Below are positions 3,028-30,985 of a stretch of DNA of 32,000 bases, one piece after another. The stretch spans positions 1,140,001 to 1,172,000 of the forward strand of contig CP126532.1 of assembly GCA_030167145.1 (NCBI GenBank). Direction: 5' to 3'. Position 1 is the stretch's first letter. Every line of letters begins with the position of its first letter. Origin of the DNA: Ktedonobacterales bacterium. Lineage in GTDB: Bacteria; Chloroflexota; Ktedonobacteria; Ktedonobacterales; JADMIN01. The position numbers and the translations under genes are program-made. The notes under the pieces are model-generated. The model had not been told where the DNA came from and did not search any database. It worked only from the letters and a program-made list of their open reading frames with translations.

Positions 3028-3051
3028 TGACACCAATTTTGACACCAATTA
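3028..3051. repeat. 12-bp tandem direct repeat TGACACCAATT(T/A) x2 overlapping the integrase stop codon
   Basis: 3028-3039 TGACACCAATTT and 3040-3051 TGACACCAATTA. Read directly. The position between int and the att core suggests arm-type recombinase binding sites, which is inference. Confidence 0.85.
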
Positions 3052-5366: not shown

Positions 5367-5496
5367 GCCTGTCTCCACGGGCATGTCGGCGGCACGTACG
5401 ACCGCTCGACAGCCCATACCAAGGGGTGAAGGGTTCGTGCGAGTCGCACAGCGACCACACCACCGACGACACCAGCAAGCACAACACGCAGCTGGC

Positions 5497-7800: not shown

Positions 7801-7961
7801 GATTGATCCTTGGTTGGCGGTTGGGATTCGGCGTGCGTGGCCTCCCGTTGCCTGCGCTCCTCGTGGAGCACGTAGGCGAAGGCGATCAGCAGCTGCTGCC
7901 ACGGCTCAGCGTCGAATGGCCGTTGTTTGGCGATGATGAGTACGCGGCGGTGTCTCGGCAT
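7797..7961 (-). CDS. small hypothetical protein (54 aa) translationally coupled to the coupling ATPase
   Basis: ATG 7961 has a strong AAGGAGG SD. Its stop TGA overlaps the ATG of the next gene. Product MPRHRRVLIIAKQRPFDAEPWQQLLIAFAYVLHEERRQ... Confidence 0.5.
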   Translation of the reverse strand: MPRHRRVLIIAKQRPFDAEPWQQLLIAFAYVLHEERRQREATHAESQPPTKDQS

Positions 7962-10709: not shown

Positions 10710-11555
10710 ATGGAAGCAGACAATAAACTCAACTGGCAGCAGCTGATCGACGAGGCACTGACCGCGCCGGGGCACTTGGGATCGGTCTACAACCGCTTTC
10801 ACGACTACAGCCTGACCAACATGTTCCTGTTCATGATCCAGGGCGTGCGCGAGCCGGTGGCGTCCTTTTCACGGTGGAAGTCGCTCGGCCGACATGTCAT
10901 CCGTGGGGCGCGGGCGAAAGAAGTCATCGTCCCCATTATGATAAATGAGCCGAATACTGCGAAATCCGCCGAATTTGGCGGAAATACGGCTGACACTGAC
11001 AGCACCGACGAACAAAAAGGGCGCGTGGCGCGGCTGGTTGGCTTCAAAGTGGTGCGGGCGGTTTTTGCCTTATCCGACACGGATGGCCCAGACCTGCCGC
11101 CGATCCACCTGCCGACATGGGATGTCGCCACCGCGCTCACCAACCTGCACATCCGGCAAACGCCGTTCGAGAACCTAAACGGCAATGTCCAGGGATATTC
11201 GCGCGGCCGCGAGATTGCCATTAATCCCGTCGCTGTCCATCCCGCCAAGACGCTCATGCACGAGGTCGGCCACGTCGTCCTCGGGCACACCATCGCCACG
11301 CGCTTCGGCGAGTACGCGACCCACCGCGGCATCATGGAGTTTCAAGCCGAGGCCACCGCCTACCTGGCGATGAACGAGCTGGGCCAACTCGATACGGCAA
11401 CCGCCAGCCAGAGCCGCGGCTACATTCGGCACTGGCTCCGCGACGAACGACCGGGCGACCGGGAAATCCGGTTGGTCTTTAGCGCTACTGATCAGATACT
11501 GCGTGCGGGCCGGGTAGCGGTCGGCGCGACGGTTCGTGCTGACGCTCCGACGTAA
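10710..11555 (+). CDS. ardC: ArdC-like antirestriction protein (ssDNA-binding N-domain plus HExxH metalloprotease C-domain)
   Basis: N-terminal FHDYSLTNMFLFMIQ...FSRWKSLGRHVIRGARAKEVIVP matches the ArdC-N/DUF1738 signature as I recall it. The C-terminus has TLMHEVGHVVLGH (HExxH) and EFQAEATAYLAMNELG. Confidence 0.75.
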   Translation: MEADNKLNWQQLIDEALTAPGHLGSVYNRFHDYSLTNMFLFMIQGVREPVASFSRWKSLGRHVIRGARAKEVIVPIMINEPNTAKSAEFGGNTADTDSTDEQKGRVARLVGFKVVRAVFALSDTDGPDLPPIHLPTWDVATALTNLHIRQTPFENLNGNVQGYSRGREIAINPVAVHPAKTLMHEVGHVVLGHTIATRFGEYATHRGIMEFQAEATAYLAMNELGQLDTATASQSRGYIRHWLRDERPGDREIRLVFSATDQILRAGRVAVGATVRADAPT

Positions 11556-11688: not shown

Positions 11689-12717
11689 CTATCTGAGTCG
11701 TTTCAGGCCGTCGTATCTTGTGTCATTGAACAGAGTCGGCTGTTCGAACGGTAACCCCGACATCTCGCTTGATATATCAACCTCGCTTGCTCCGGGCGTG
11801 TTGATACGGTCGTACACCGCATTGGCTTCCGATTCCTGGACAAAGCGTAGTGCTGAAGCGGCCAGATAGCTCTGGTCCAAATCGAACGCGAGCCACTGGC
11901 GATGAAGTCCCTCAGCCACCGCGCCGGTAGTGTTGGAGCCAGCGAAGATATCGAGGACCAGATCGCCCTCATCAGTCAGGAACTTGATGAAGAACTCCGG
12001 CAATTTGGCTGGGAAGCGCGCCGGGTGCCCGGTCGCACCGACGAGCTTGCAGAACCGTAGGTACTGCGAATTGCTTTCAGTATTGGGGATTTGCAGCAGG
12101 TTCGATGGGATCGCCCCACCATTGTCTTTATTGAAGCCTTCGCTAATGTCGTGGCCCGACGGGCGAAGTGCTGGTTCATAGTACCGCGTTTTATTGCTGA
12201 GCAATTTCGCCATGCGCGCTGAGTAGGGCACGAGCACATTGGAGACGTTGGCTTTGGGCGCGGAAGTCTTAGTGAACCACCAGAGGGTATTGACCGAGTC
12301 CTTGGCGCGAATCTTACGCTTATTGACCCACTCGATCGGCGAGGGCAGTTTCGACGAGTTATACCAGAAGAACTCCTCAGCCAGGTACCACCCCAGCTCG
12401 TCGCACATCCTCACCAGGACGCGATACTGATAAATCGATCGCACCGGTAGGCCGCTCTGGTACGCCCCACCTAAATCAAGCACAAAGCTTCCCGTCGGCT
12501 TCAAGATGCGCTTAATCTCTGGCGTGAACGACAGCAGCCAGTTGACGTATGTCGCTTGGTCTTCGTTCCCGTACGCTTTCTGGCGTTGCAGCGCAAATGG
12601 TGGCGACGTCATGACCAGATCGACTGATTCATCTGGTAGCTCGCGCATGAGATCATTAGCATCGCCACAAAAGGCCTGGCCCTGGCGTGTGGTGTAAAGT
12701 GGCTTCCGCTGCATCAC
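11689..12717 (-). CDS. beta-class DNA methyltransferase (motif IV SPPF before motif I; N4-cytosine or N6-adenine)
   Basis: VDLVMTSPPFAL (catalytic motif IV) lies near the N-terminus and DLVLDIFAGSNTTG (FxGxG SAM motif I) near the C-terminus, plus HPARFP. SPPF is typical of m4C enzymes such as the M.PvuII group. The start is GTG 12717 or ATG 12714, and either overlaps the stop of the upstream gene. Confidence 0.85.
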   Translation of the reverse strand: MMQRKPLYTTRQGQAFCGDANDLMRELPDESVDLVMTSPPFALQRQKAYGNEDQATYVNWLLSFTPEIKRILKPTGSFVLDLGGAYQSGLPVRSIYQYRVLVRMCDELGWYLAEEFFWYNSSKLPSPIEWVNKRKIRAKDSVNTLWWFTKTSAPKANVSNVLVPYSARMAKLLSNKTRYYEPALRPSGHDISEGFNKDNGGAIPSNLLQIPNTESNSQYLRFCKLVGATGHPARFPAKLPEFFIKFLTDEGDLVLDIFAGSNTTGAVAEGLHRQWLAFDLDQSYLAASALRFVQESEANAVYDRINTPGASEVDISSEMSGLPFEQPTLFNDTRYDGLKRLR

Positions 12718-14171
12718 CCGTACACCTCCAAGCCATAGACCCAGCTGGATACAATCTTCCAGAGTACCGTTGTCGCGAAATAGACCTCAAGGTCTTGGGC
12801 CTTGAGTGCCTCAAGCTCGCTGATGAATTCTTGGCTGTCACGCATGCCGAGGATATATGAAATCCACTGGCGTGCATCCTCGTCGGTGCGCGCAGTGAGC
12901 AACTCACTTATATTGAACTGCCCACTCTTGCTCAATGCCCAGGCAATGCCCGGTCGTAGCGTTGCGGAGGCGGACCCGAAGCGGTCGATGAGGTTGCCAG
13001 AGTATGCGGGTGCGAATCGCGCGAGCGCGCGTGCTGCTTCGACCCGAATGACGTCGGCAAGCTCGCCAAAAGCATTCACCAGCGACTCGATGCTAGATGG
13101 GTCGCCCAGTTCGCCGAGTGACCAGGCGGCACCAGCCCGCACCTCAGCATGTTGTGTGGGGTCGCTGAGGACGGCCTGCAGCAGGGTAATTGACGATGGC
13201 TTGTCGAGTTCAGCGAGGATGATTACCGCTTCCAGTCGGTGCTGCGGGTAGTCATCTTGCAGGCGCTGCCGGATGAAATCCCAACCTTCGGCGCGGTCAG
13301 CCCGCGCCAAGGTTGCCGCCGCTTCCATACGCACGTAAATATGCTCATCGGAGTCCTTGAGTCGATCAGTTAGGGCCGCCAATATTGGTTCGCTTGTCGG
13401 CAGGAAGCGCAGCGCTTTCGCGGCGGCGTAGCGCTCGCTGACCGATGCGCTCCGCAAGCGCCGCAGGAAATGCTCCTCGGCTGCGATCGGTGCACAGGAG
13501 AACGACGGGTGGGGCGTCACTACGGAGGCGATGATTTGATCCTCTACCACTTGCTCGCCGGCCTTTACGCTGGGCTTGACCCCTGGGCTGCGCCACCGAT
13601 AGGATACCGTTCGGTTATCGGCGGTTCGCCTGATGCGAATCGAGGAAGCATCAACTGCTAACACTATTCCGGCTGCGGCCGCAATTGTGGAAGGCCAGAT
13701 CAGTCGGCTTTCGAAGCCTTCTTGCGCACCTTTCGGCGTCGTACTCTTTACCAGTCCTGCCCTGAACGCCGTATCCATCTCGCCGACCTGGATATAGGAG
13801 ACGTTCTGATCTGCCTCCCAATCGATGGGCGCCTCGCCACGCTTATGGACGCCAACAAGGGCAACATAGTCTTGGTCGTACAGCCCGCTATTCCAAGCTC
13901 GCTCCGCATCCGCTAGGGAATGTGACATGGAGACCTCGAACTTGGTTTTGCCCCGTGACTCAACTCGCGTCCCGCACCGTATGCAGAGAATATCCGGCAC
14001 CCTAATACGCTTGATCTTGATTTCACGCCAGATTTTGAAGCTCCGAGAACCGCGCTCCAGCTCAATTGGCTGGTGACCCGCGTCGGTCAGATCAGCGAAT
14101 ACACGCTGGGTGCCGATGGCACCAATCGAGAGCTTTTCCAGAAAACTGGTGTCGGTCTTAAACGCAGGCAT
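12714..14171 (-). CDS. unusual 485-aa protein: N-terminal nuclease-like module, beta-rich middle, C-terminal HEAT (PBS-lyase-type) repeats; candidate partner of the methyltransferase
   Basis: aa 243-445 contain 5-6 repeats of about 31 aa, for example YVRMEAAATLARAD, VRAGAAWSLGELGDPSSIESLVNAF and IRVEAARALARFAP. The N-terminus has IELERG...RVPD(60)ILCIRCGTRVE(71)SRGK(75)TK, which resembles a PD-(D/E)xK layout but not strictly. Its stop overlaps the MTase start. Confidence 0.7.
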   Translation of the reverse strand: MPAFKTDTSFLEKLSIGAIGTQRVFADLTDAGHQPIELERGSRSFKIWREIKIKRIRVPDILCIRCGTRVESRGKTKFEVSMSHSLADAERAWNSGLYDQDYVALVGVHKRGEAPIDWEADQNVSYIQVGEMDTAFRAGLVKSTTPKGAQEGFESRLIWPSTIAAAAGIVLAVDASSIRIRRTADNRTVSYRWRSPGVKPSVKAGEQVVEDQIIASVVTPHPSFSCAPIAAEEHFLRRLRSASVSERYAAAKALRFLPTSEPILAALTDRLKDSDEHIYVRMEAAATLARADRAEGWDFIRQRLQDDYPQHRLEAVIILAELDKPSSITLLQAVLSDPTQHAEVRAGAAWSLGELGDPSSIESLVNAFGELADVIRVEAARALARFAPAYSGNLIDRFGSASATLRPGIAWALSKSGQFNISELLTARTDEDARQWISYILGMRDSQEFISELEALKAQDLEVYFATTVLWKIVSSWVYGLEVYG

Positions 14172-14433: not shown

Positions 14434-15594
14434 TCACTCGTCAACATCGTCTAGATCGCCCAGACCCTCAGCGCTTACGTCCGGGACTTGCTCTCGTTTT
14501 CTGTGTAGCATGGTCGGCGGTTTTACGGCATCCGGACGCACCGGTCTAGCCCGTGCTCCACTGGTAGGCAGTACCGGCTTTAGTGCCCGCTTGGAGCTCA
14601 CCTCGTAGTCAACGTAGGTCATGGGTGAGTTCAAGTAGTCGTCACTGAGCAGGCGCAAGAACTGGGTTTTGTAAGCCGTCGCATACACGAGCATCTCCTT
14701 GCCGTCGCGCTTCGTAATTTCGACGGACAAGCCACGGCGATCGATCGCCCGTCTGATGCGGGCCATCGATAGCTGCTGTACGTGGGGCAACTCGGCGAGA
14801 TCAGCGAGCTTCATTGCCATGCGCGGATCGCGTTTGCAGGCGGCCAGAAATTCGTCGAGGTTGGCGATGGGAATACGGTCTTGCAAGCTGTAGGCAACGG
14901 CTTTTGCTTCCTCTTGGACATACTCGTAGAAGCGGAATATGCGCTGGAACTTGTCCCGGTTCAGGATGAACATGTCGTCGCCCCGGCAGAGGCAGTCAAT
15001 TTGATAATCAAAGACGAACCCTGGCTCGGGCACCTCATCGTAGTAGCCGGGTTTATGGCCGCGCAACGTGGCGACCCAGCGGGTTCGGTGTAGTTGGAAA
15101 CTGTCAGTAAAGAAACGGAATGCGTGGAGGATTGGGTCGGTCGGACTATCTGCTCGCCGCAGCGAGACGACGTAGTAACGCAGTCCCGCTAGGAACTCCT
15201 TGCGTTCACGGAACGGCTCGAGATCCCAAGGGGCGGCCAGCGGCGCAATTTGGTCAGCGACGCGGTCGCCATTGGACAGCGCCAAGTGCTCCAGAACATC
15301 TTCGCTGGCACCGATACCGCCCTGATAGTCTTCGACCACGCCACCATCTTCCAGCCGGTCGAGGAGGTCGTCGAGCGTATCAGCCACTATCGTGCGAAAG
15401 CGCTGCGCCAGCGCCGGTTCTACCTGCAACTGCCGATAGGTGGTCTTGGCCGCGTCTTTCCGGGTTGACTCTTTGATAGAGGCGAAGTTTACCGTGACGC
15501 TGGCGGTCGCTAGATCGATGGCCGCAAACTCTTTGAGCAGGTTGTAATACTTCGTCTCTGGGACGAATAACCGCAGTTGTCTACTGACCATCAT
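14434..15594 (-). CDS. kwaB: KwaB-like protein (DUF4868) of a Kiwa-type defence pair
   Basis: 386 aa. Segments FVFDYQIDCLCRGDDMFILNRDKFQRIFRF and KTQFLRLLSDDYLNSPMTYVDY match my recollection of the KwaB/DUF4868 conserved blocks. Its start ATGATG overlaps the stop of the upstream 4-TM gene. The Pro/Arg-rich, acidic C-terminal tail of about 55 aa is extra. Confidence 0.65.
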   Translation of the reverse strand: MMVSRQLRLFVPETKYYNLLKEFAAIDLATASVTVNFASIKESTRKDAAKTTYRQLQVEPALAQRFRTIVADTLDDLLDRLEDGGVVEDYQGGIGASEDVLEHLALSNGDRVADQIAPLAAPWDLEPFRERKEFLAGLRYYVVSLRRADSPTDPILHAFRFFTDSFQLHRTRWVATLRGHKPGYYDEVPEPGFVFDYQIDCLCRGDDMFILNRDKFQRIFRFYEYVQEEAKAVAYSLQDRIPIANLDEFLAACKRDPRMAMKLADLAELPHVQQLSMARIRRAIDRRGLSVEITKRDGKEMLVYATAYKTQFLRLLSDDYLNSPMTYVDYEVSSKRALKPVLPTSGARARPVRPDAVKPPTMLHRKREQVPDVSAEGLGDLDDVDE

Positions 15595-16103
15595 ACACTC
15601 TCGATCCAGAGGTCGTGATCCATGCGCGCGACCTTCACGACATCATTCCGGGCGATCTCGGCCTTAGTAATGAGGTGCTGCGTTCGCCCGTTCTCGAATG
15701 TGACCTCATAGACGTGGTATCCGAGGCAGCGGAGCGTCGGGTTTATGTGCAGCATGTCGGTGCTGACGTACAAGTACGCCAAGACGAGGAAGAAGATGAC
15801 GAGCGCGACATCCTGCCTCACGTCGCGCAAGGTGAAGCCCACAAACGGAATAAGATAGGCTGCTACGTAGCCCATCACCTCGTCGCCGCGCCTGCGGTAG
15901 TCAACGACGGTCCTCGTCGCCGGTTCTACGTCGGTTTTTGCGGTATGGAGGAACCACAGCAGTCCACTGACTCCGAGCAGCAATACAGCCGCCGCGACGA
16001 TTGCCACGACGCTGTCTCTACCAGCGTAGAGTACTAAGAAGATCAGGGCAAGCGGCGCGTACGAGCTACAGAACATGACGGCGCGAGCGAAGTTGTTGAG
16101 CAT
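15591..16103 (-). CDS. kwaA: KwaA-like four-TM membrane protein
   Basis: ATG 16103 is preceded by AGGAG. Four hydrophobic helices: AVMFCSSYAPLALIFLVLY, VVAIVAAAVLLLGVSGLLWFL, VMGYVAAYLIPFVGF and VALVIFFLVLAYLYV. These are followed by a soluble tail of about 60 aa. The call rests on gene order (membrane gene then DUF4868) and the 4-nt overlap. The track start at 16277 adds a non-coding-looking leader. Confidence 0.6.
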   Translation of the reverse strand: MLNNFARAVMFCSSYAPLALIFLVLYAGRDSVVAIVAAAVLLLGVSGLLWFLHTAKTDVEPATRTVVDYRRRGDEVMGYVAAYLIPFVGFTLRDVRQDVALVIFFLVLAYLYVSTDMLHINPTLRCLGYHVYEVTFENGRTQHLITKAEIARNDVVKVARMDHDLWIESV

Positions 16104-16271
16104 GTGCCCGGCTGACTCCTGTGAGCGGTGATCCCTAGTCGCAATGGTAGCTACGACTTGCGACGGGCTTCTGGTACGTACGGCCACACCGCGAGGCGCC
16201 GTATAGGAAATCCATCCCCCTGAGCAATCGGCGACGCTGACCAACGGGCTAGTGAGGTGATCCACTCCGGC

Positions 16272-16300
16272 TGTCAACGATGCGGCTCGCCTAGTATAAT
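16272..16300 (+). promoter_or_regulatory. candidate sigma-70-type promoter of the large gene
   Basis: TGTCAA (16272-16277), a 17-nt spacer, then a perfect TATAAT (16295-16300), about 58 nt upstream of ATG 16358, in the divergent region shared with kwaA. Confidence 0.45.
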
Positions 16301-16357: not shown

Positions 16358-19300
16358 ATGATGGCTCGACCAGGTCTTATTGACCGCCAAGGCCTACTCG
16401 ATTGGGCCAAGCTCCGTGTCGCGGAAAGCGAACTGCCTCGACTCATCCGTCGGCTTATTCTGGAAACGGGTCGCGGTATCGCCTATCTCGGGTTTCCCGC
16501 CGGGGAGGGCGTGGCCGCGAGCAGTTGGGACGGGACCGTTCGCGCAACTGAGGAGGCACTATACATACCGCTAGGTCTTTCGCTGTGGGAGGTGTCGGTT
16601 AACGGCAGCCCTGGCGCTAAGGCCAATGATGATTACCAGAAGCGCACGACGACACCGGATGGCTCGCCCACGAGCGACTGCGCGTACGTTGAGGTCATAT
16701 TGCGCCCGTGGACGCAACGCTTTGATTGGGCGCGTGATCGGACCGCCGAGGGCAGGTGGAAAAAGGTGACTGCACTCGGGGTGGACGACGTGGAGACGTG
16801 GCTCGAGTTCGCGCCAATCACACACGCGTGGCTATCCGAGTTGAATGGGTTACATCCCTATGGTTTGGTGACGGCGCAGACCTGGTGGAATACATGGTCA
16901 GCGGCGACGACGCCGGCGTTTCCGAGCGCGGTAGTGGTCGCCGGGCGGGACGAGGCTATCACGAAGCTCCGACAGGCGCTGGGCGAGCCGGGCCAGGTCG
17001 TTACCGTCCGGGGCACGAGTCGTGATGAGGTGGCGGCTTTCGTGGCCGCAGTCGTGTTAGCTGAGGAAGCTGCTGATGGCGGCGCCCTGCTCGCGCGGAC
17101 CGCCTTTATCGACAACGTCGAGACGTGGCGTCGCTTGCGTGGCCACCAAACACCCCTGGTCCTGGTCGCCTTGACAGAGCAAGTGGCCGCTGAGTTTGTA
17201 CCTAGTTCTCCCCATGTCCTCATCGTGCCGCGAACGGGGACAGCAAGTGCGGACATTGAGCTGCGACCCATTGATGCGCAGGTGGCCACAGAGATTTTGA
17301 AAGGCGCGGGTCTCGCGGAACGCCAAGCGGTGGAAGCCGGCCAACTCGCGCGTCTCAGTCTTCTGGCGGCGCGGCGACGACTGGCGAATAAGCGGGAGCT
17401 CCTTCAACCAGCCTGGGCTGAGTCGCCCGCTGGCAAGACGATACGCCGCCTCGCGCTCGTCGGACGCTGGAATGAGGACTCCGACGCGGACCGTGCTCTC
17501 GTCGGGCAAGTGGCCGGTATCTTGTACGACACGCTGCGCGAGGAAATCGCCAAGCTCTCTGCGGGCGGCGACCCACTGTTGGCGCGGGTCGGCGGCACCA
17601 TCGGTGTCGTATCGCCAATTGACGCGTGGCTGCTGCTCTTCGGCGAGCTGCGGCAGGACGACCTCGTAGCCGTTCACGATGCTGCCCGAACAGTCTTAGC
17701 GGAAATCGATCCGCGTCTAGACCTGCCGCGAGATGATCGTTGGCTGGCGCGGGTGCGCGGTAAGACCCGAGCGTACTCGGACAATCTCCGACAGGGGTTG
17801 GCCACGACGCTCGCCCTACTCGGCGCATATGGCGCTCGCCCAATTGGGGGCACCGCCAGCGTAGGCCGCGACTGGGCAGCGCGGATTGTTCGCGAGACGC
17901 TGGCAGCCGCGAACGCGGACGCAGCGTGCCGCTTGTGGGTGTCACTCGCCGACGTACTACCGCTGCTAGCAGAGGCCGCGCCCGAAGCGTTTCTCGACGC
18001 CGTGGCGACAGGCGCGTGTGGGCAAGCGCCCGTGCTCAGCGGGATATTTGAGGATGTGGCAGACAGTGGGCATCCGCTGGGGCCAAGCTCGGCGCACAGC
18101 TATTTGCTCTGGGCGCTCGAAAGGTGCGCTTGGTCGCCGGATCACATTGGCCGGGTGGGTGACGCACTGGCCCGGCTTGCGGAGATTGACCGGGGCGGTC
18201 GTCTGAGCAATCGTCCCTTTGCCTGTCTCCACTCGCTCTTCCGCCCATGGTATCCGCAGACCGCCGTGTCTGCTGAACGGCGGCTCGCCGTGATTGATGG
18301 CTTACGAGACCGTCACCCGGCAATCGCCTGGAAGTTACTGATGTCGCTGCTGCCCGAGCCGGGTGGCGCGGCGGTGGATACCAGTGAGCCGCAATTCCGT
18401 GATTGGAAACCGGAACAGATTATGGTATCGGCGGCCGAATACTGGACCGCTATCGGTGAAATCTGGACGCGGCTCCTCGCAGACGCCGGCCACGATCCCG
18501 ACCGCTGGGTAGCGCTGATCGAGAAGATTGATGACCTGCCGCCACCAAACCGGGGTGCGGCACTCGCACGCCTTGACGCACTAAGTGGTGACGGTGACTT
18601 ATCCGAAGAACAACGCACAGCCACCTGGAGAGCGCTGCGTGCCGAGGCGGCAAAACACCGTGAGTACGCGACGGTGTCGTGGGCGTTACCCGCCGACGAG
18701 GTGTCGGCGATGGAGGCAACAGCCACGCGGTTCGCGCCGACCAGCTCTGACGAGCGACATCGCTGGCTGTTTGAGCAGCAGTCACCGATGATCTCCACCA
18801 TTAGGCAGACTGACGACTTCGCGGCGTACGACGCCGAACTCATGAAGCTGCGCGCCACCGCTGCAGCCGAGATTGCAGACACATCGGACTGGTCCGGTCT
18901 CCAGCGCTTTGCTACGTCACTGGAGCACTCGTGGCTTGTCGGCGAGGCGGTGGCGCGGGCCCGACGCTACGAGCACGAGAGCGAAGTCCTGACACTGCTT
19001 GGGTCCGTCGAGCACCGTGAGGCGGTCTTCGCCGCCGGCTATGTCTCGGTGCGCTTCCAGACGGACGGATGGGAGTGGCTCGAGTCCTACCTCAACGATG
19101 GCACACTTTCACCCAATCAGGTAGCCCGACTCCTTTTGTATACTGATGACTATCCGAAGGCGTGGCAGGTCGCCGAAACAATGGGCGAGCCAATCGCCGC
19201 CCTCTTCTGGCAACAGTTTCGGACGCACGGCCACGATCCGGGCTTCGCGCACGTGGACTTTGTGGCCGAGCGACTGCTCGACGTCAATCGGCCGGGCGCC

Positions 19301-20184
19301 GCGCTCGACCTGATCTTGATCTATTCGGACCGTGGGAAGGTCATGAGCCAAGCACGCGCCAAACTCGTGGCACGCGGTCTCGAAGCCTTGCTCGACCGCG
19401 ACGCTCAGGAGGCGGACCTCGGATACCTATCGCACGATACCATCGTCGAACTCTTTAGTGCTCTGGAGCGCTCCGAATTGTCACGAGAGCGCCTAGCGCG
19501 GCTCGAATGGGCGTACCTGCCGTCCCTTAACTATGATGGCCGGCCCGCGACGCTGACTGCGATGCTGCCGCGTGACCCTGATTTCTTTGTGGACATCATT
19601 CGACGTATCTTCAAGCCGAGTGGCAGTGAGGATACAGATGAGCCTGAGCCTGTAGATGAAGCTCAAGACAAAGCACAGCGGGAGGCGATCACGCAGAACG
19701 CGTACCGCCTGTTGATGGAGTGGAAGAACATTCCCGGTCAGTGCGATGACGGGACGGTGGACGCTGCGGCGCTCGATGCATGGGTAACGCGGACGCGCGT
19801 GCCAAGCTCCGGGAGTCTGGCCACCTCGAGATTGGCGACTCGCGCATCGGCCACGTACTGGCCTGGGGCCCAGCGGATGCGGACGGGTCCCGTCCGTGCC
19901 TCGCGGTATGCAATCTACTGGAGAAGCTCGAGAGCACCGGCAACCTTGAACATGGCTTGATGATTGAGCTGCGCAATAGTCGTGGCGTGACAACCCGCGA
20001 GCCATTGGAGGGCGGCGACCAAGAACGCGCGCTCGCCGCCACGTACTTCAAGCAGGCTGAGGCGTTTGCTGATCGCTGGCCGAAGACCGCCGCGCTCCTG
20101 CGCAAAGTTGGTGAGAGCTACGAGCAAGAAGCGCGGTTCATGGACGAAGAGGCCGAGCGTCGTCGTACAGGCCTCGATAGTTAG
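16358..20184 (+). pseudogene. large orphan protein (about 1,275 aa if repaired), interrupted by a -1 frameshift near 19784-19790
   Basis: Track ORF 16358..19960 turns into Arg/Ser-rich junk after ...DAAALDAWV. ORF 19780..20184 in the -1 frame continues with well-behaved sequence: NADARAKLRESGHLEIGDSRIGHVLAWGPADADG...GGDQERALAATYFKQAEAFADRWPKTAALLRKVGESYEQEARFMDEEAERRR. Re-reading A19786 (GTA-AAC) joins the two frames. The body is long, helical and Leu/Ala-rich. No GxxxxGK[ST] motif was spotted. Confidence 0.6.
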
Positions 20185-22599: not shown

Positions 22600-22628
22600 G
22601 CGACAGCAGGCGTTGTAAGTGGTACAAT
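22600..22628 (+). promoter_or_regulatory. candidate promoter with an extended -10 (TGgTACAAT)
   Basis: GCGACA (22600-22605), a 17-nt spacer, then TACAAT (22623-22628) preceded by TGG. This would give a leader of about 390 nt before the CHAP gene start. Confidence 0.35.
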
Positions 22629-23023
22629 ACCAAGTGACCCCCTTCTACGCGAGCAAGAAGCCGCCACGCGTGGTCAGGGAAGGGGCCCGCGCTCCTATCC
22701 TGACGTCAACTGCTGCCGGCTCCAGCCTGCGCGCGCCACCAGACGAAGGGGCACTAGCTGCGGGAGGCGGTGGACCACACGGTCGCTCGTCGTTCTTCGA
22801 GTGCATGCGGAAACCTGGAGGGAGGACGTCTCTCGACCGGTGCACGTCTACTCGCCCTGATGATCCCCACTCACCACAACCCGCTAAGGTAGTGGGCAGT
22901 CCATCGGGCTATCAATCAGCCACCCTCGGTACTACGGGAGCTCGGGGCAGACGCAATCTGCCCTGGCCCGCGCGGGCCGATCAGTCGATGGCGTCGAGCC
23001 ACAGCGAAGGTGAAGGTGTATGC

Positions 23024-24451
23024 ATGTCCACATCGGAACGGCGGCCGCGGAAGGCGTTGGTAGGGCTGGCAGGCATTGTGATCATCGCCGTAGGGCTGGC
23101 CGGTTGGATGTTGTACCTGGGGCACTCGCCGCAGGCGTTTCTTGCTGCCGGTCCCGGCAACGACTACCCCTGGGGGAACGCCACTGATTGTTCCCAGACG
23201 TTCGGCATATACTCTTGGTGCCTGAATGGCAACTGGCTTTCGCCACTGGGCTTTGGCTACCGCAACTGCACCGACTATGCGGCGTACGAGTTGAACGAGG
23301 CGATGGGGGGCAGTGTGAGCCACCCTAAGTTCGCGTGGAAGGACATAAACGTTAAGACGCCCGCTTCCCCCAACGGGGACGGCAATGCCCGGGAGTGGAA
23401 GCAAGGGGCCATTAATCGCTACGGCGCTGGGGTCGCCAATGGCACGCCGGCGGTCGGTGCGGTTGCCTGGTGGGGCACTGTGGGCCACGGCTTCGGTCAC
23501 GTCGGCATTGTGACCTCCGTCTCGCCAGATCGACAGACCATCCGCGTCGACAGCTACAACGAAGACCAGCATGGTAACTTCTATCCGGACACCATCAGTA
23601 CGACGAAACGCGGGGTGTTGCCCTGGCCAGACGCCTTCCTCCACATCGCGGACGGTCCGAGCGCGAGCGGCAGCAGCGCCGACCGTCAGCCCGCCGACTT
23701 CGCCGGCAAGATCGTGCAGTGGGATGGTGACCACAACCAGCAGCGGGCCTCGTGGCTCGTCTCGGCCGACCTCAAGCGCTACTGGATTCCTGACATCCGG
23801 ACCTACTGGTGTCTGCGGGGCCAAGGGCACGCCGACGCTGGCCCGATTAGCGAGCATCTCCTCGACCAGCTCCCCGACACGGGCCACTGGGCGACGTGCG
23901 GCAGTAGCCCAATTGCCACCGCGCCGGTAGCAGTCGTACTCACCCCAACCCCAACGCCGCCCCCAACCTCGCCGCCCCCAGCGCCCTCACACCCCGTTGA
24001 CGCGTACTCCAATTACGGACAGGACAACCTGGTCGGCCACGCCATGTGCCGCGGCAACCCCGGCGACCCCTTGTCCATGCCGGGTGGCACGGGCACACAG
24101 ACCTTTACGGTGCCGGCGGGCGTCTCCACGTTGAGCAGCGCCATGGTGCAGGTTGATCCGGCAGACGTCACCGCGTATCTCACCGTGTACGTGAACGGCG
24201 TGGCACAGGCAACGGCAGCAGCCGCAGCGGTTGGCGATACCCACTTCACGTTTGGTCCCGTCAGCGTGCACCAAGGCGACACCGTAATGCTCTCTATCAC
24301 GTTCACGGCTACGTACGGCAAAATCATTACGCTGTATACGGTCGGTCATCCGGGTGGAACGTTCACCGCACAGAACAGCTGTCCCGATGGCGCTCCAAGC
24401 GTCACAGTGACCGATGGCGGACTGCGGGCAGTGGTGTCTGGCATGAGCTAG
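23024..24451 (+). CDS. membrane-anchored CHAP-domain peptidoglycan hydrolase with a PT linker and C-terminal beta-rich domain
   Basis: ATG 23024 is preceded by GAAGGTGAAGGTG; ATG 22988 is an alternative. TM ALVGLAGIVIIAVGLAGWMLYL. CHAP-type Cys/His blocks: GFGYRNCTDYAAYEL and GHGFGHVGIVTSV. Linker TPTPTPPPTSPPPAPS. The first 135 codons of track ORF 22619.. look non-coding. Confidence 0.75.
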   Translation: MSTSERRPRKALVGLAGIVIIAVGLAGWMLYLGHSPQAFLAAGPGNDYPWGNATDCSQTFGIYSWCLNGNWLSPLGFGYRNCTDYAAYELNEAMGGSVSHPKFAWKDINVKTPASPNGDGNAREWKQGAINRYGAGVANGTPAVGAVAWWGTVGHGFGHVGIVTSVSPDRQTIRVDSYNEDQHGNFYPDTISTTKRGVLPWPDAFLHIADGPSASGSSADRQPADFAGKIVQWDGDHNQQRASWLVSADLKRYWIPDIRTYWCLRGQGHADAGPISEHLLDQLPDTGHWATCGSSPIATAPVAVVLTPTPTPPPTSPPPAPSHPVDAYSNYGQDNLVGHAMCRGNPGDPLSMPGGTGTQTFTVPAGVSTLSSAMVQVDPADVTAYLTVYVNGVAQATAAAAAVGDTHFTFGPVSVHQGDTVMLSITFTATYGKIITLYTVGHPGGTFTAQNSCPDGAPSVTVTDGGLRAVVSGMS

Positions 24452-24601
24452 GGTGACACAGTTCGGCACGGTGCCCTGGTCCAGCGCGGCCAGGGCACCG
24501 TGCCGGGTGCTGGATATGTCGGGGGCAGCTGGCGCCTGGCCGTGGCTAGTGCCGTGGCTGGCGAGCACGCTCGATGGCAATGGCAACATTCAGCTGGCCT
24601 A

Positions 24602-25040
24602 CTACTCGAGCTCAAGCCATGGCTTACGCCAGCTGCCCTCGGCAACTGCATTCACCGCTTTGTCGGTCCCTTCGGCCTCGCCATTGGCATTGCAGCCGGG
24701 ACCGGTATCGTCGCGGGACTCGTCCTGCACTGGAAGCATGAGCAGCGCCTCGAAGCCGAGGCGATTGTGCACGCCCTGGGCCGCTGGATGCCCACCGCTG
24801 AGCCACTTGCCCGTAACGGGCGTGCACGATCGCCTCGCGGGCGATGAGCTCGAGCTCCCAACGCTTGATGCCCGCCGCGGGCTGTTTATAGAGTGGGAGG
24901 ACCTCCAGATCAGGCGCAAAGGGGACGCCGTAGGCGAGGTTCTGCGAGTACGCCCTGACGACTGCTAACGTATCGGCCAGGGGGTAGCTCCGAATGCGAT
25001 TGCGAAACGGGCGATAGGTTTCAAAGACGTCGTTGTTCAC
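24602..25040 (-). pseudogene. small hypothetical gene (about 146 aa if repaired) with an apparent frameshift near 24815-24830
   Basis: GTG 25040 has a GGGGAGGG SD. It reads MNNDVFETYRPFRNRIRSYPLADTLAVVRAYSQNL...WELELIAREAIVHA and then becomes Arg-rich junk. The neighbouring frame continues with GC3-rich coding-like PVTGKWLSGGHPAAQGVHNRLGFEALLMLPVQDE...WLELE to a stop at 24602. It is divergent from the ATPase gene. Confidence 0.35.
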
Positions 25041-25263: not shown

Positions 25264-26874
25264 ATGAGAGTCACGAGCGCGCACTTCAGAGACTTCAAGC
25301 GGTTTAAGGACCTAACCATACAACTACCGAGCACCGGTACGCGCCTGGTTGTCATTGCCGGGCCGAACGGGACAGGCAAGTCGTCCATCTTTGATGGCTT
25401 TAAGGTGTGGCAGGGGAGCCGCTACACCGGTTTCAATCAGGATCCGTTGTACTATGATCGGCCGGAAGCGCGTCAGTCCCAGCAAGCCTCGCAGCGGGTC
25501 AGCATCGACTTTGACCGCCCGCCGACGAGCGTTGAGGAGTTTAAGCGAGCGTTCTATATCCGCTCGGCCTACCGGCATGAAGCCGACTTCACGATGGCAC
25601 AGATTCAACGTACACCGTCGCTGCTCGACCAGAACCGGTTCTGGAAGATGATTGACCAGGATGTGGCAGTATCGCAGAACTATCAGCAACTCGTGGCCCA
25701 GACGTTTGAAGGCATGTTTGAGCCGCAGAACAACGACATGCGCGTCGAGGCTCTGCGAGAGCAGCTAATCGGCCAGGTCCGCGCGGCCATGCACCGCGTG
25801 TTTCCCGACCTGGTGCTCGAAGGCTTACAGAGTCCGATGAGCGGGGACGGCTCGTTCTTCTTCGAGAAGGGGGTGAGCCGCAAGTGGCACTACAAGAACC
25901 TCAGCGGCGGTGAACGGGCAGCGTTTGATCTGTTGCTCGACATCATCGTGAAGCGCGCAGCCTTCCACGACACGATCTACTGCATCGATGAGCCGGAGAC
26001 ACACCTCAACACGAAGGTGCAGGCGGTGTTACTGCGCGAGTTGGTCAACCAGATTCCCGAGGGGTGCCAGCTCTGGATCGCCAGCCACTCCATCGGCATG
26101 ATGCGCGAGGCGCTGACCATGTGCGACGAAGGGGCGAGCGTCGTGTTCCTCGACTTCGGCGACCGAGACTTTGATATGCCGGTCGTTATCGAGCCGTCCC
26201 GCCCGGATCGCCACTTCTGGCAGAGCGTCCTGAGCGTGGCGCTCGACGATCTGGCGGGGTTGGTGGCGCCCAAGGAGGTCGTGCTCGTCGAAGGCAAACC
26301 GCTCATTCAGGGGACGACGCGTCGAGACAGCAACGTCGAGTTTGACGCCAGGTGTCTGCGCACCATCTTCGAGCCTTATCGGCCCCAGTCAGGCTTCATT
26401 TCAGGCGGCGGCTCGCATGAGGTCGCACACGACCGTCTCGCGCTGGGCAGTGGTATCGCGGCGCTGGTGCCGGGCGCGTCGCTGATCAGGTTGATTGATC
26501 GTGACGATCGGACGGACGCTGAGGTCGAGGCGCTGCGCCGCGGCGGGTGCAGGGTGCTCGGCCGCCGTGATATCGAAAACTACCTCCTCGCCGATGACAT
26601 CCTCCGCAAGGTAGCCACCGAGATGGGTAAGCCAGGTATGGGGGATGCTTTGGTGGCGGAGAAACAGCGATTGCTTGGTGATGGAATGCTTGCAGGCCGG
26701 CCCGCAGACGATGTCAAAGCGGTTGTCGGCCCGCTCCGACAGTTTATCCGGCGGGAGTTGGCCCTAACGCAATCGGGCAACACGCCGCACGCCTTCTTGA
26801 GCGACACGATGGCGCCGCTGATTACGCCTGACACGGCAACCTACCAGGAGCTCGAGCAGGCCATTTTTGGCTAA
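25264..26874 (+). CDS. ABC-type ATPase fused to a Toprim/DUF4435-like domain (OLD-family / PARIS AriA-AriB-fusion-like), 536 aa
   Basis: Walker A GPNGTGKSS, ABC signature LSGGERAAF, Walker B TIYCIDEPETHL and H-loop WIASHS. The C-terminal part has VVLVEGK (Toprim Glu), LIRLIDRDDR (DxD) and RRDIENYLL, as I recall for DUF4435/OLD Toprim regions. Confidence 0.7.
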   Translation: MRVTSAHFRDFKRFKDLTIQLPSTGTRLVVIAGPNGTGKSSIFDGFKVWQGSRYTGFNQDPLYYDRPEARQSQQASQRVSIDFDRPPTSVEEFKRAFYIRSAYRHEADFTMAQIQRTPSLLDQNRFWKMIDQDVAVSQNYQQLVAQTFEGMFEPQNNDMRVEALREQLIGQVRAAMHRVFPDLVLEGLQSPMSGDGSFFFEKGVSRKWHYKNLSGGERAAFDLLLDIIVKRAAFHDTIYCIDEPETHLNTKVQAVLLRELVNQIPEGCQLWIASHSIGMMREALTMCDEGASVVFLDFGDRDFDMPVVIEPSRPDRHFWQSVLSVALDDLAGLVAPKEVVLVEGKPLIQGTTRRDSNVEFDARCLRTIFEPYRPQSGFISGGGSHEVAHDRLALGSGIAALVPGASLIRLIDRDDRTDAEVEALRRGGCRVLGRRDIENYLLADDILRKVATEMGKPGMGDALVAEKQRLLGDGMLAGRPADDVKAVVGPLRQFIRRELALTQSGNTPHAFLSDTMAPLITPDTATYQELEQAIFG

Positions 26875-26912: not shown

Positions 26913-27602
26913 TCACTCCATAGGTACCTGGTGGGCTTCTGCTGGTGGCGCTCCATCATGCGCTGCTAATTCCCGCTCGCTGATGAAGCCGACATACGAG
27001 ATGGCGTGCAAACCAACCATCAGGATGGAGTCAAACAGTGACTGCACCCACGGGAAGCCGAGTTCGTTCGCCTTCCAGCGCTCCAGCGCCTCCCATTTCT
27101 CCGGCTCAGCGTGGGCCATCCCGCCATAGATGAACACGTCCATGACTTGGCGGTGGGTGTAGTTGTACTCGCCGACAACGGTTGGCAGTTCGTCCGACCC
27201 TGGCGTCGGAGGTTTGACCACTTTCTCGTTGTAGGGCGACGGGCTATCCAAGAAGGCGTTCAGTTGGGTCCGCACGTCCGTGAACGCTCCCTTCCACTCA
27301 TCTGCGAGGCCGGGGTCATCCATCACGTGCTTCGCTAGCCAGGCGAATGACGCGGTTTCCCGCTGCTGGATGAAGAAGCGGAACGTCAGGACGAACGCGT
27401 CCGTCGCGTCGTCGTCGGGGCGGACGTGCTCGATCTTGACCGCGCTCTGACCGGAGGTGGGGTCGGTCTTGTGTTCATAGGTTAGCTTCGTGCCATTACG
27501 CTCGCGGAGCAGTCCCGTGTAGCGGCCGCCGCGCAGCTTTTGGACTTTCAGGACCACCAGTTTGAGCGCCCGGCGCGTCTCGGGGCGCATCGGAGTTACC
27601 AT
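26913..27602 (-). CDS. hypothetical protein (229 aa)
   Basis: ATG 27602 (ATG 27590 is an alternative) within track ORF 26913..28061, whose upstream 153 codons are Arg/Pro-rich and overlap a gene relic in another frame. Product MVTPMRPETRRALKLVVLKVQKLRGGRYTG... No family recognised. It is convergent with the ATPase gene across a 38-nt gap. Confidence 0.5.
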   Translation of the reverse strand: MVTPMRPETRRALKLVVLKVQKLRGGRYTGLLRERNGTKLTYEHKTDPTSGQSAVKIEHVRPDDDATDAFVLTFRFFIQQRETASFAWLAKHVMDDPGLADEWKGAFTDVRTQLNAFLDSPSPYNEKVVKPPTPGSDELPTVVGEYNYTHRQVMDVFIYGGMAHAEPEKWEALERWKANELGFPWVQSLFDSILMVGLHAISYVGFISERELAAHDGAPPAEAHQVPME

Positions 27603-27906
27603 ACAATTACCTGCACCTTTCCCTCTTGCGGCTCGCTGGCCGCAACTCGATGGGAGCGTCCTGACCGCGCACCTGAACGAAAAGCGTGGCGCGGGTTTGG
27701 ATAGCCGCCGCGCCTCCGCTTGCCAGCTAAGCAAGTCACAAGTAGCGACCGCTGTCAAGGGCACGGGCGGGCGATTTCTGGCGCGCGAAGGCAACTTGCA
27801 ACGTGGAGCGGGATAGGGAGGTGAACGAACGGCTGGCCGCCGAGGCTCGTGGCGGTCTCGCTCAGGCTCGGAGCCGAAAGTCAGCGGCAGCCGGTCAATG
27901 TAGGCT

Positions 27907-28071
27907 TCACGAGCCCGCCTCACCCATGTGCGCCACTTGCCAGGTACCGTCGCTGGTTGCCACCAGCGTGAACGAGCGGGTATTGGTGCCAACGACCGTG
28001 TCTGGTGAGGACACAGCAGTGGCCTCGTAGGCGATGCACGCCGTAAGCTGGGTGTCAGCAAGATGCTCGAT
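27907..28071 (-). pseudogene. 3'-terminal relic of a paralogue of the 20217..20930 gene
   Basis: Translation ...IEHLADTQLTACIAYEATAVSSPDTVVGTNTRSFTLVATSDGTWQVAHMGEAGS* aligns with the last ~53 aa of the 237-aa protein (QLTVCIAYEVATLAAPDTVADTGTRTFTLVAANDGTWQVVQMGGTGS). DNA identity by eye is about 70% against 20217-20378. No TM or linker part is present. Confidence 0.6.
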
Positions 28072-28168: not shown

Positions 28169-29176
28169 CTATTCGAACCGCAGTCGCGCGTTGAATAGGT
28201 ACGAGAACGCGCCTACCTCGACGGGCGACGTCAATTCAGCCGCCGCAGCCGCTGCCCCGAGCGCAAGCAAGCCACCCAAGACGTCACCCTGCTTCACCTG
28301 CCACGCAGCGCCAGCGAGCCCCAAGCCGAATGCCAGCGGTCGCCGCCACGCTTTTTGGGCGAGCGTACGCAACTGGGCCGCAGCATCTGCCAGTTCAGCC
28401 TGCCGTGCGTGGAGCTCCTCCTGCTGGTCATCTAACGGCAGTTGCCCGATCTCGCGCACGAATTTCCGGACATTGCGTGCATAGGCGCGGTAGTGGGGGC
28501 GGTTCTGGGCCCGGAAGTCCAGAACTTCGTCTATGGGTATCGGCCCGAGATCTACCCCAACGGTTTGCATGTCCAGCGATACGACGTGGGCCGCCGAGGG
28601 TTCCGTCGGTAAGCTGAGCAGTTCCTTCAAGGCCTCGTGAATTTGCGGCGTATCGGTCACTGGCTGGAGGTCGAGGCCCTTGGCCTTACCAACCGGCCTG
28701 AGCAGCTGCCCTAAGAGGACGAGGATGAGTGAGCGCACCAACGGGTGCATGGGAATGGAGACGTTGTCCTCTGATTGCTTGGCAAGGCCGCGGCTGATGA
28801 GTTCATCACGGATCATGCTCGCCAGGCCTTCATCAGCTACGGCGCCGAGGCGCGAGTACGACAGCTCGTGAAACCGGGTAGGTTCGGCGGCGAGACCATC
28901 GAGCGCACCGGACACCAATATGTCCGTCATCGCCGTCGCTAACGCCTCGGTCGTCGAGTGATCAATGAAGGTCTCCGGCTTGAGGATCGTAAGTAACCCA
29001 TGCTGCTCCAGCCCGGCAACGATCGCGGGATCGAACCAAAAGGGACGGTCGCGCATGTAGTTCGGTACGAGCAGCGCAATACCGTCGAAGAACAGGATGA
29101 GATTCTTAACCCAATCACCGTTACCCCACATGGGATTGGGGTAGTAGTAGGCAGTTTCGGGGACTTCATCGGCCAT
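28169..29176 (-). CDS. hypothetical protein (335 aa) with a C-terminal Gly/Ala-zipper hydrophobic tail
   Basis: ATG 29176 is preceded by AGAGGAGAAA. The N-terminus AYYYPNPMWGNGDWVKNLILFFDGIALLVP vaguely recalls a DUF family (DUF6236-like), which I cannot confirm. The C-terminus is RRPLAFGLGLAGAAWQVKQGDVLGGLLALGAAAAAAEL. Confidence 0.6.
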   Translation of the reverse strand: MADEVPETAYYYPNPMWGNGDWVKNLILFFDGIALLVPNYMRDRPFWFDPAIVAGLEQHGLLTILKPETFIDHSTTEALATAMTDILVSGALDGLAAEPTRFHELSYSRLGAVADEGLASMIRDELISRGLAKQSEDNVSIPMHPLVRSLILVLLGQLLRPVGKAKGLDLQPVTDTPQIHEALKELLSLPTEPSAAHVVSLDMQTVGVDLGPIPIDEVLDFRAQNRPHYRAYARNVRKFVREIGQLPLDDQQEELHARQAELADAAAQLRTLAQKAWRRPLAFGLGLAGAAWQVKQGDVLGGLLALGAAAAAAELTSPVEVGAFSYLFNARLRFE

Positions 29177-29322: not shown

Positions 29323-29904
29323 TTAGCTATGCTTCAGTTCTTTCGGCAAGAACGCGTCGATCTCGACGTCGCTGAACGTCATGTCCTCGCTCAATTTTAG
29401 CGCGGCTTGCGCTCGCTTATAGGCCCCATTGTTCGTGCTCGGGGCGTTGCGATAAATCTGGTGCAGCTCATCGCGCCGCTGATCGCGCTGCGCCTGCAGC
29501 TCTTCGATCGGTTTCTCACCCATGCGGAGGTCCACCAGCAGGGACTGGTACTTCTCACGGACGAGCCACAGGTCGCTGGCTGTTTGCCGGTGTTTCTGCG
29601 CCTGCTCGCCGGGGTCGTAGTTCTTGGTGTAGGCGTTGAGTGCCAGTAGGATGGCCGACACGATGAGGCCGACGACGGCGGCGAGTTTGCTGGTGCCGAG
29701 CACGGCGGTAATAAAGCCGACGGTGGTGAGGGCCGACAACCCAATTTGCGCGATCCTAATCCAGGACTGATTCCGCAGCAGAATGTCCGCGCACTTCTCC
29801 TGGGTCTTATGGGTATAGACGACGCGGCCGTAGGCTTCGCGCAGCTGTCCCTCGAGAATCCGCCGCGATTGCGGTGTATCGTCAGTTTGGGAATGTGGTT
29901 CCAA
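29323..29904 (-). CDS. SLATT-type two-TM effector (193 aa)
   Basis: The frame of track ORF 29323..30090 has no ATG or GTG in a sensible position. TTG at 29904 lies 6 nt after GGAGG. Product LEPHSQTDDTPQSRRILEGQLREAYGRVVYTHK..., then two TM helices (WIRIAQIGLSALTTVGFITAVLG and LAAVVGLIVSAILLALNAY) and a helical tail. This matches the SMODS-associated 2TM (SLATT) architecture. It overlaps the upstream gene by 23 nt. Confidence 0.65.
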   Translation of the reverse strand: MEPHSQTDDTPQSRRILEGQLREAYGRVVYTHKTQEKCADILLRNQSWIRIAQIGLSALTTVGFITAVLGTSKLAAVVGLIVSAILLALNAYTKNYDPGEQAQKHRQTASDLWLVREKYQSLLVDLRMGEKPIEELQAQRDQRRDELHQIYRNAPSTNNGAYKRAQAALKLSEDMTFSDVEIDAFLPKELKHS

Positions 29905-30757: not shown

Positions 30758-30985
30758 TTCCTTGCCTCCCGCGCCAACAAATATGCTGCCGGAGGGCGCG
30801 GCAGTCATGTAGCCACACCTCGTCCAGGACACAGGCAGCACGTGTCGTCTGCCCTTCCAGTGCCAGATGGGGCTGCTCTGTGCGGTACGTGTCCCTGCAT
30901 TGCTGCTCAGATTGTATCACAAAGCGAAGGAGCGTTCGAACACGTGTACCAGTGCGCATTGATGCTCACAGAGGCAGCGGGTCAA

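Follow-up and report, generated by a model that had tools for sequence, protein, structure and literature searches.

A 32,000-nt stretch of the genome of a Ktedonobacterales bacterium (contig CP126532.1, positions 1,140,001-1,172,000, assembly GCA_030167145.1; hereafter the window) contains two overlapping open reading frames, ORF A and ORF B, that constitute a single gene of ~1,274 codons, broken near 19788-19791. With slightly better than even confidence, we read this locus as a recently broken or mis-sequenced single-polypeptide anti-phage pattern-recognition nuclease of Avs-like, STAND-derived type, carried as cargo by an integrative conjugative element (ICE). Joined near 19786-19792, the two frames align end to end with homologues of 1,256-1,280 aa, and the protein repaired by removal of the dinucleotide CG has 1,274 aa (WIG58312.1 is the protein in the source assembly). 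An earlier reading made from sequence alone (the sequence-only reading) had proposed one very large gene diverging from kwaA, with a TATAAT promoter of its own. Both points are borne out: kwaA and kwaB lie upstream in the opposite direction, and a promoter-like CTGTCA-18 nt-TATAAT site matches the consensus at 10/12 positions, where shuffled sequences lead one to expect 0.2 sites by chance. A GAGAGG ribosome-binding site is found 5' of the gene's ATG. Because homologues begin with MARPG or MTRPG in an alignment of 32 full-length sequences, the second ATG (16361) is probably the true start.

AlphaFold2 models were generated from 94 homologues for aa 1-1143 (predicted local distance difference test, pLDDT, 89.9; predicted template modelling score, pTM, 0.75) and for aa 1-432 (pLDDT 93.9, pTM 0.91). 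The predicted fold has four parts: a restriction-endonuclease-like head, a STAND/AAA+-type module, a winged helix and ~840 aa of helical repeats. In both models the head runs helix, three strands, helix, strand, helix, strand, with DSSP placing H20-37, E41-44, E59-63, E73-80, H85-95 and E109-114 in that order; the alpha-beta-beta-beta-alpha-beta core of the PD-(D/E)xK superfamily is hence predicted to be present. The central nucleotide-binding, helical and winged-helix domains (NBD-HD-WHD) of a STAND protein are likewise present in the model, with structural matches that do not separate STAND from the ORC/Cdc6 clade. Helices continue through aa 433-1143, such that one polypeptide appears to combine an N-terminal endonuclease-like head with a C-terminal repeat region of at least 400 aa. 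This solenoid, which has weak sequence matches to AlphaRep/HEAT-like proteins, is the presumed sensor. The nuclease-like head proposed from sequence is therefore plausible on the basis of topology, conserved residues (see below) and structural matches, but extends over ~165 rather than 110 aa. Similarly, the helical body of more than 1,000 aa holds for aa 433-1143, which are all-helical, while for aa 170-430 the model predicts an NTPase-like alpha/beta domain followed by the lid and the winged helix.

When the full model was compared to the PDB using Foldseek, the top match was Avs4 bound to phage portal (8dgf_B, E 2.8e-5), followed by SAMD9 and then generic HEAT/ARM solenoids (CAND1/CAND2, importins, exportins). 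Avs4 was again ranked first for the aa 1-432 model (E 6.9e-5), with 513 aligned columns that include its nuclease head. Next in this list are ORC1/Cdc6, the Dark and Apaf-1 apoptosomes, SAMD9, TRIP13, NAIP5 and Sr35, the ORC/Cdc6 and apoptosome-type matches spanning 330-375 columns across the NBD, lid and winged helix. Viral models returned AAA+/RFC proteins, an NLR-like protein and a 'Restriction endonuclease' (probability 0.93).

Residue conservation was determined from 74 aligned family members sharing 27-90% identity. R31, D58, G59, E78, R96 and R197 are invariant (74/74), while K88 is found in 71/74 members and D92 and H286 each in 69/74. D58 is located at the start of strand 2 and E78 in strand 3, the usual places of the PD-(D/E)xK acidic pair. 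It is thus plausible, given the modelled topology, that the head is a DNA-cleaving nuclease with D58/E78/K88 as candidate triad. The nucleotide-binding fold, by contrast, has lost its motifs. The structural P-loop of the window protein reads VRGTSRDEV and the Walker B position LVLVA-LT (family consensus x(G/A)xSxx(E/D)E and LVLV(P/A), respectively), and neither GK[ST] at the P-loop nor an acidic pair at Walker B occurs in any of the 74 members. What is retained is the GR of an hhGRExE-like motif, R197 being the invariant arginine; the family's AGR(D/E), upstream, resembles the hhGRExE motif of STAND proteins. A literal [AG]x4GK[ST] string, AESPAGKT, does exist at aa 354-361 (window 17417-17440) and is common to the nearest homologue (P0002) only. 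We rejected it as a Walker A motif: it falls between lid and winged helix, away from the structural P-loop position, and is a chance match. Across the family the Walker A expression matches 4/162 members, all by chance and at non-homologous places, and a motif scan without structure would mislabel the protein as an ATPase owing to AESPAGKT. The proposal that the protein has no Walker A is thus correct for the structural P-loop, this chance string notwithstanding. The accompanying statement that it lacks enzymatic motifs did not survive, as a candidate nuclease triad and a degenerate STAND module are present.

The protein is not an orphan, as had been supposed, but belongs to a large, collinear and unnamed family. 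A word-index search with the joined protein returned 229 matches; nearly all of those listed have 1,256-1,280 aa and match the query over its full length. P0002 is the nearest at 85% identity, and the next are at 64% or lower. Searching with a profile built from the last 130 aa retrieves 4,498 representatives (proteins clustered at 50% identity), of which 705 have E < 1e-30, and a single scan of 185,579 species genomes gave 104 relatives. These are spread over Chloroflexota, Actinomycetota (including Corynebacterium, Brachybacterium, Gordonia, Actinoplanes and Microbacterium), Acidobacteriota, Gemmatimonadota, Myxococcota, Planctomycetota, Verrucomicrobiota and Pseudomonadota, with an archaeal relative in Methanothrix, and 24 plasmid records, 11 of them conjugative, also carry the gene. 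Comparison with P0002 indicates purifying selection over the entire gene, strongest in the head (ratio of non-synonymous to synonymous substitution rates, dN/dS, 0.08). Scans of the window protein and close homologues against Pfam, NCBIfam and PADLOC gave no match, and Pfam at E <= 1 on the 74 N-terminal regions no recurrent family. PDB sequence searches, whether single-sequence or profile, returned noise or designed helical repeats only, and literature searches on family locus tags found no mention. The repaired protein was therefore not found to belong to a well-characterised family, its only link being a remote one to Avs4/Avs8, at structure level and through weak hidden Markov model (HMM) matches.

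Avs4 (PDB 8dgf), an Mrr-like nuclease-STAND-TPR portal sensor, comes first among the structural matches, whether the search is made with the whole model or with aa 1-432 only. It has the same domain order and, like the family studied here, is encoded by a single gene in defence islands. In contrast, sequence identity is ~9%, TM-scores are 0.16-0.26, and no AVAST or Avs HMM matches the family; models of Avs/AVAST, NACHT, NB-ARC and nSTAND (Pfam, NCBIfam, PADLOC) gave no match across the 74 members even at E <= 1. The second relative to consider is PD-lambda-4 A, which is Avs8A, an Mrr-nuclease/P-loop NTPase/repeat protein that degrades DNA once it has bound HK97-fold capsid proteins (PMC12236752). 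The window protein itself matches neither PD-Lambda-4_A nor any other PADLOC model. However, 4/6 divergent full-length members match PD-Lambda-4_A weakly (family aa 527-802 to profile 558-726 of 1,283), and in the sensor region of 72 members two PD-Lambda-4_A models, PDLC03991 (6/72) and PDLC03990 (3/72), give weak, collinear matches with a best E of 1.7e-5. None of the other PADLOC models (5,027 in all) matched that region more than once. The N-terminal regions of the 74 members gave two PADLOC matches, PD-Lambda-4_A (1/74, E 0.0082) and Cas9b (weak, E 0.074), and tblastn of the best-matching segment against plasmids (E <= 10) retrieved only family members.

Avs8A (E. coli ECOR07 WP_000963924.1) thus resembles our family in its ~1,280 aa, endonuclease-fold head, STAND module and C-terminal repeat sensor, and as the only recurrent PADLOC family that divergent members match, in collinear fashion; moreover, its homologue KpAvs8 also has degenerate Walker motifs (PMC13581612). 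The similarity is nonetheless marginal. The DNase activity of EcAvs8A depends on ATP, and the protein has a P-loop (PMC12236752), whereas Walker A and B are both missing throughout the aligned members here. Avs8 comes with a small partner gene B, although Avs8A alone suffices for defence and B is dispensable (PMC12236752), whereas at ~80 loci of the present family the most frequent neighbour family occurs in no more than 6. Avs8 is found in Gammaproteobacteria, the members described here chiefly in Actinomycetota, Chloroflexota and Acidobacteriota. An effector joined to a large helical sensor without an active STAND ATPase has a precedent in Dsr1-type proteins, in which a SIR2 effector is combined with an Avs7-like large helical sensor in the absence of a STAND NTPase (PMC13581612). 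Compared by description, these have no NBD fold and use SIR2, whereas the present family keeps the NBD-HD-WHD fold and has lost the motifs. SAMD9/SAMD9L and Avs9-like STAND proteins (Foldseek PDB ranks 3 and 5 with the full model, 6 with the N-terminal model) share the large antiviral STAND-plus-repeat architecture, but carry AlbA, SIR2 or OB effectors; SAMD9 is eukaryotic, and the similarity is at the level of architecture only.

The mechanism we propose would start with the C-terminal solenoid binding a conserved phage protein, as in Avs sensors, thereby releasing an autoinhibited closed state. The degenerate STAND module would then drive oligomerisation without a canonical ATP switch, and the clustered N-terminal heads (D58/E78/K88) could cut DNA and abort infection. 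ATP or dATP binding is generally held to be the on-switch of STAND/NLR receptors in bacteria, plants and animals. More broadly, and far more tentatively, the family may represent STAND-derived immune receptors of bacteria and archaea wholly freed from nucleotide binding, in which NBD-HD-WHD serves as a ligand-gated oligomerisation scaffold linking the endonuclease head to a helical sensor of phage proteins. If true, this rather doubtful proposal would describe a nucleotide-independent NLR-like switch, distinct from the Avs families characterised in the papers cited here, in a large conserved family that keeps the fold without either Walker motif in all aligned members while under purifying selection in defence islands. 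It would provide a natural test of the nucleotide need in NLR-type activation, and would add an unannotated defence gene in Actinomycetota (Corynebacterium, Gordonia and Brachybacterium, for example), in several further bacterial phyla, in Methanothrix, and on rhizobial and Shewanella plasmids. Avs families are by now numerous, and degenerate motifs are already on record for one of them; of note here is the apparently complete loss of the nucleoside triphosphate switch under selection.

Several observations weigh against assignment as an Avs-like nuclease. The nuclease motif is non-canonical, with E78-x-S/G in place of (D/E)xK and K88 ten residues on in the next helix, although some restriction enzymes have relocated lysines. 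No sequence match to STAND, Avs, NACHT or nuclease models (Pfam, NCBIfam) or to PDB sequences was obtained, Foldseek E-values are modest (1e-5 to 1e-3) and the solenoid matches generic. Because TM-scores are low (0.16-0.34), the modelled similarity to matched structures is one of architecture, not close kinship. The structural models stop at aa 1143, before the last 130 aa, and some relatives are named HTH (helix-turn-helix) regulators owing to an N-terminal XRE fusion. A role in phage defence is moreover one that we infer for every family member. Finally, the characterised Avs4 and Avs8A need ATP, Avs4 tetramerising on ATP binding (PMC12236752), so a receptor unable to bind it needs a different switch.

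Some of these points would also suit a head that is a non-catalytic endonuclease fold used for DNA binding or oligomerisation, with signalling through a trans partner or an occasional C-terminal AIG2/GGACT domain. The departure from canonical (D/E)xK, the lack of nuclease HMM matches and the few members that carry AIG2/GGACT are in keeping with this. We nevertheless find it decidedly unlikely: D58 and E78 are invariant and K88 nearly so at 27-90% identity, no part of the gene is under stronger constraint than the head, no conserved partner gene is seen, and AIG2 fusions are limited to 4/120 listed homologues. Similarly, the family might serve the mobile element itself, as a plasmid/ICE addiction, exclusion or regulatory factor that contacts DNA through its head or through an HTH and uses the solenoid as a scaffold. 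Its presence on plasmids, the ICE-like nature of the window and several other loci, and the N-terminal XRE/HigA-like HTH of proteobacterial members (with an RHH-like, i.e. ribbon-helix-helix-like, extension in others) argue for such a role. However, defence and abortive-infection genes are often autoregulated through HTH fusions, and most members have none. The Avs4-like three-part fold with its conserved acidic and lysine residues suits an effector better than a regulator, and genes for defence, rather than for replication or partition, make up most of the immediate neighbours. We therefore regard a mobile-element role as unlikely, and retain the Avs-like nuclease as the favoured reading.

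As read, the window copy runs on for 57 out-of-frame codons past aa 1143 and then stops. The highly conserved C-terminal 130 aa are missing from it, unless sequencing error accounts for two extra bases. At the lesion the window has GGGTAACGCGGACGCGCG, where the gene of P0002 (locus L001) has GGGTGA--CCGACGCGCG in the DNA alignment, placing a 2-base insertion (CG/GC) at about 19788-19791. Removing CG gives ...DAWVTDARAKLRESGHLEIGDS... and the protein ...DAWVTDARAKL, gap-free against all 32 aligned homologues, whose junction is W-V-(T/H/N/A)-(D/E/G)-A-R. The -1 frameshift at 19786 suggested previously is thus incorrect, as a one-base repair adds a residue found in no homologue. Against P0002, dN/dS is 0.168 before the lesion (1,142 codons) and 0.160 after (131 codons), with 85% amino-acid identity on either side. 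This equality suggests that the tail was under selection until very recently or that the insertion is an error; the damage would accordingly be recent, or a sequencing error. We give nearly even odds to an assembly or base-calling error, with the gene intact and functional in the organism. The matching selection and identity on both sides are consistent with this, as are the single lesion in 3.8 kb of gene, its CG-rich run, and the source, a single 5.07-Mb contig of a metagenome-assembled genome (MAG), which we take to be typical of long-read assemblies. Conversely, just one assembly of the organism is on record, and no obviously split genes were seen among the other long ORFs of the window (without a systematic test), which would speak against a generally error-prone assembly. 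Real inactivation also seems common in the family: most loci hold a single uninterrupted ORF, but ~11/78 (~14%) in other genomes are split or truncated, at varied positions and never at residue 1143. Relatives with the two halves as independent genes were not seen. A programmed frameshift or phase variation was considered and rejected, as there is no slippery heptamer or long repeat tract in the sequence, most relatives are uninterrupted here and the split ones break elsewhere. The split or truncated loci (L013, L017, L019, L023, L044, L046, L051, L077, L085, L086 and L088, from species-representative genomes) reflect either frequent inactivation, perhaps of a costly or toxic gene, or error-prone MAG assemblies.

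The C-terminal region downstream of the lesion is the family's best conserved stretch (mean column identity 65% compared to 57-60% overall) and has a low dN/dS (0.10, compared to 0.16 over all 131 codons after the lesion). It had been thought to be a module shared with other large proteins. Among the best 150 of 4,498 matches, however, the 48 of at least 1,150 aa align over the whole 1,270-position family profile and are full-length, collinear family members. In all of the best 150 the region lies at or near the C-terminus, and the shorter ones look like fragments of family members. A shared domain is thus ruled out for these 150 matches, and we read the last 130 aa as the terminal part of a presumably continuous helical region, not as a mobile module. 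Autoinhibition of Avs7 involves a conserved helix at its C-terminus (PMC13581612); by analogy, a similar role for the last 130 aa can be speculated.

The positions of the gene's parts and of other features of the window are given in Table 1. The window is an ICE-like element, with defence genes, including the gene studied, as cargo.

Table 1 Features of the window (positions relative to its first base)
Feature	Position	Strand	Remarks
ORF A	16358-19960	+	1200 aa
ORF B	19780-20184	+	134 aa, frame +2 relative to ORF A
Promoter-like site CTGTCA-18 nt-TATAAT	16271-16300	+	57 nt 5' of start codon; consensus match only
Restriction-endonuclease-like (PD-(D/E)xK-type) head, predicted	16358-16852	+	aa 1-165; AlphaFold2 topology, conserved residues, Foldseek
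NTPase-like STAND/AAA+-type five-stranded alpha/beta domain, predicted	16865-17257	+	aa 170-300; pLDDT >90
Helical lid and winged helix completing NBD-HD-WHD, predicted	17276-17647	+	lid aa 307-341, winged helix aa 360-430; DSSP on models
Alpha-solenoid (HEAT/TPR-like) body, predicted	17654-19786	+	aa 433-1143; all-helical, pLDDT mostly 85-97
Lesion, two extra bases (CG/GC) in ACGCGGA	19787-19793	+	frame shifted; DNA and protein alignment
C-terminal 130 codons and stop	19792-20184	+	frame +2; conserved, presumably helical end, 85% identical to P0002
kwaA	15591-16277	-	PADLOC and Pfam
kwaB	14434-15594	-	PADLOC and Pfam
Tyrosine integrase	3049-4395	-	mobile-element backbone
Replic_Relax relaxase	4515-5552	-	mobile-element backbone
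TraG/TrwB-type coupling protein (T4CP)	5497-7902	-	mobile-element backbone
ArdC-N/M78-like anti-restriction protein	10710-11555	+	mobile-element backbone
CHAP-domain hydrolase	22619-24451	+	mobile-element backbone
Type II N6/N4 DNA methylase and HEAT-repeat protein	11689-14171	-	342 aa (PADLOC MTase_II, E 1e-149) and 485 aa; 4-nt overlap
ABC/SMC-type ATPase	25264-26874	+	536 aa; best PADLOC match to fused AriA/AriB (PARIS) models, E 2.8e-28
CD-NTase (CBASS oligonucleotide cyclase)	29882-30841	-	E 7.6e-143

Genes adjoining family members were examined in seven metagenomic contexts with precomputed Pfam annotation. These comprised, context by context, AbiEi/AbiEii; an RHS toxin and IS3 element; SNase, AbiJ and DUF6119; SLFN-AlbA, Macro, integrase, relaxase, NERD and HsdR; DUF5677, SIR2, type I restriction-modification (RM) and McrBC; type I RM, relaxase and SAVED; and GmrSD, T5orf172, MmeI and ArdC. 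When neighbours within 10 kb at ~80 loci were clustered, families reached 6 loci at most; the most frequent were transposases, integrases, type I RM subunits and MmeI. Searching 144 immediate neighbours against PADLOC gave matches to models of many systems, including type I restriction endonuclease, MADS, HEC-05/06, PDC-S09, SspE, DRT, AbiE and GajB. There is hence no conserved partner gene, the neighbours being variable and rich in defence and mobile-element genes, and conserved housekeeping synteny was not seen in the homologue neighbourhoods. The variable neighbours (type I RM, McrBC, GmrSD, MmeI, AbiE, AbiJ, SIR2, CBASS-SAVED, integrases and relaxases among them) support the earlier suggestion of a stand-alone single-gene sensor/effector candidate in a defence island.

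Kiwa adjoins the gene in this window only, as neither KwaA nor KwaB was seen among the neighbours reported for other loci (Pfam gene lists and listed PADLOC families). A functional link to Kiwa was thus rejected for want of co-occurrence at other loci. The kwaA ORF has 228 aa from a TTG, compared to 170 aa (15591-16103) in the call by the Joint Genome Institute (JGI), and the PADLOC match begins at about residue 59. With the shorter call the intergenic distance between kwaA and the gene becomes ~254 bp instead of 80 bp.

A number of family members carry additional domains. An N-terminal XRE-type HTH (HTH_3) is found on proteobacterial plasmid members, such as those of Rhizobium tropici pRtrCIAT899b (L093 7704-11774, WP_004118204.1) and Shewanella baltica pS19502 (L094 152-4264, WP_012197948.1). 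RefSeq names these XRE-fused members 'helix-turn-helix transcriptional regulator' or 'HigA family addiction module antitoxin', which fits only the first ~100 residues; ~1,260 of the ~1,360 belong to the family described here. N-terminal extensions (P0090, P0107, P0112, P0221, P0185, P0208, P0213 and P0259) are RHH-like, XRE HTH or a conserved ~190-aa helical stretch, and the XRE HTH and RHH-like kinds may be autoregulators. The C-terminal AIG2/GGACT (gamma-glutamyl cyclotransferase-like) fusions are P0065, P0085, P0114 and P0117. One record filed as 'Bacteriophage sp.' (MT837561.1, L095 1762-5376) was rejected as evidence of phage carriage. This unverified human-gut contig has a low-GC 1,204-aa family member between an hsdM-like fragment and an IS256-type transposase, and appears to be DNA of a bacterium or mobile element, not of a phage.

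Other cargo of the window includes the methylase and HEAT-repeat protein, conceivably a defence pair of an unusual, methylase-linked kind. A restriction enzyme cognate to the methylase was not identified, and the HEAT-repeat protein has weak PADLOC matches to HEAT-ARM_XIII and RT_UG22. The ABC/SMC-type ATPase, for which PtuA, NsnB and mad3 follow AriA/AriB as PADLOC matches, is possibly another defence gene; its flanking ORFs (24453-24968 and 26913-28061) gave no match. The ORFs at 29397-29918 and 28169-29176 (both on the reverse strand), downstream of the CD-NTase and with no PADLOC match recorded for either, could be effector or accessory genes of the cyclase.

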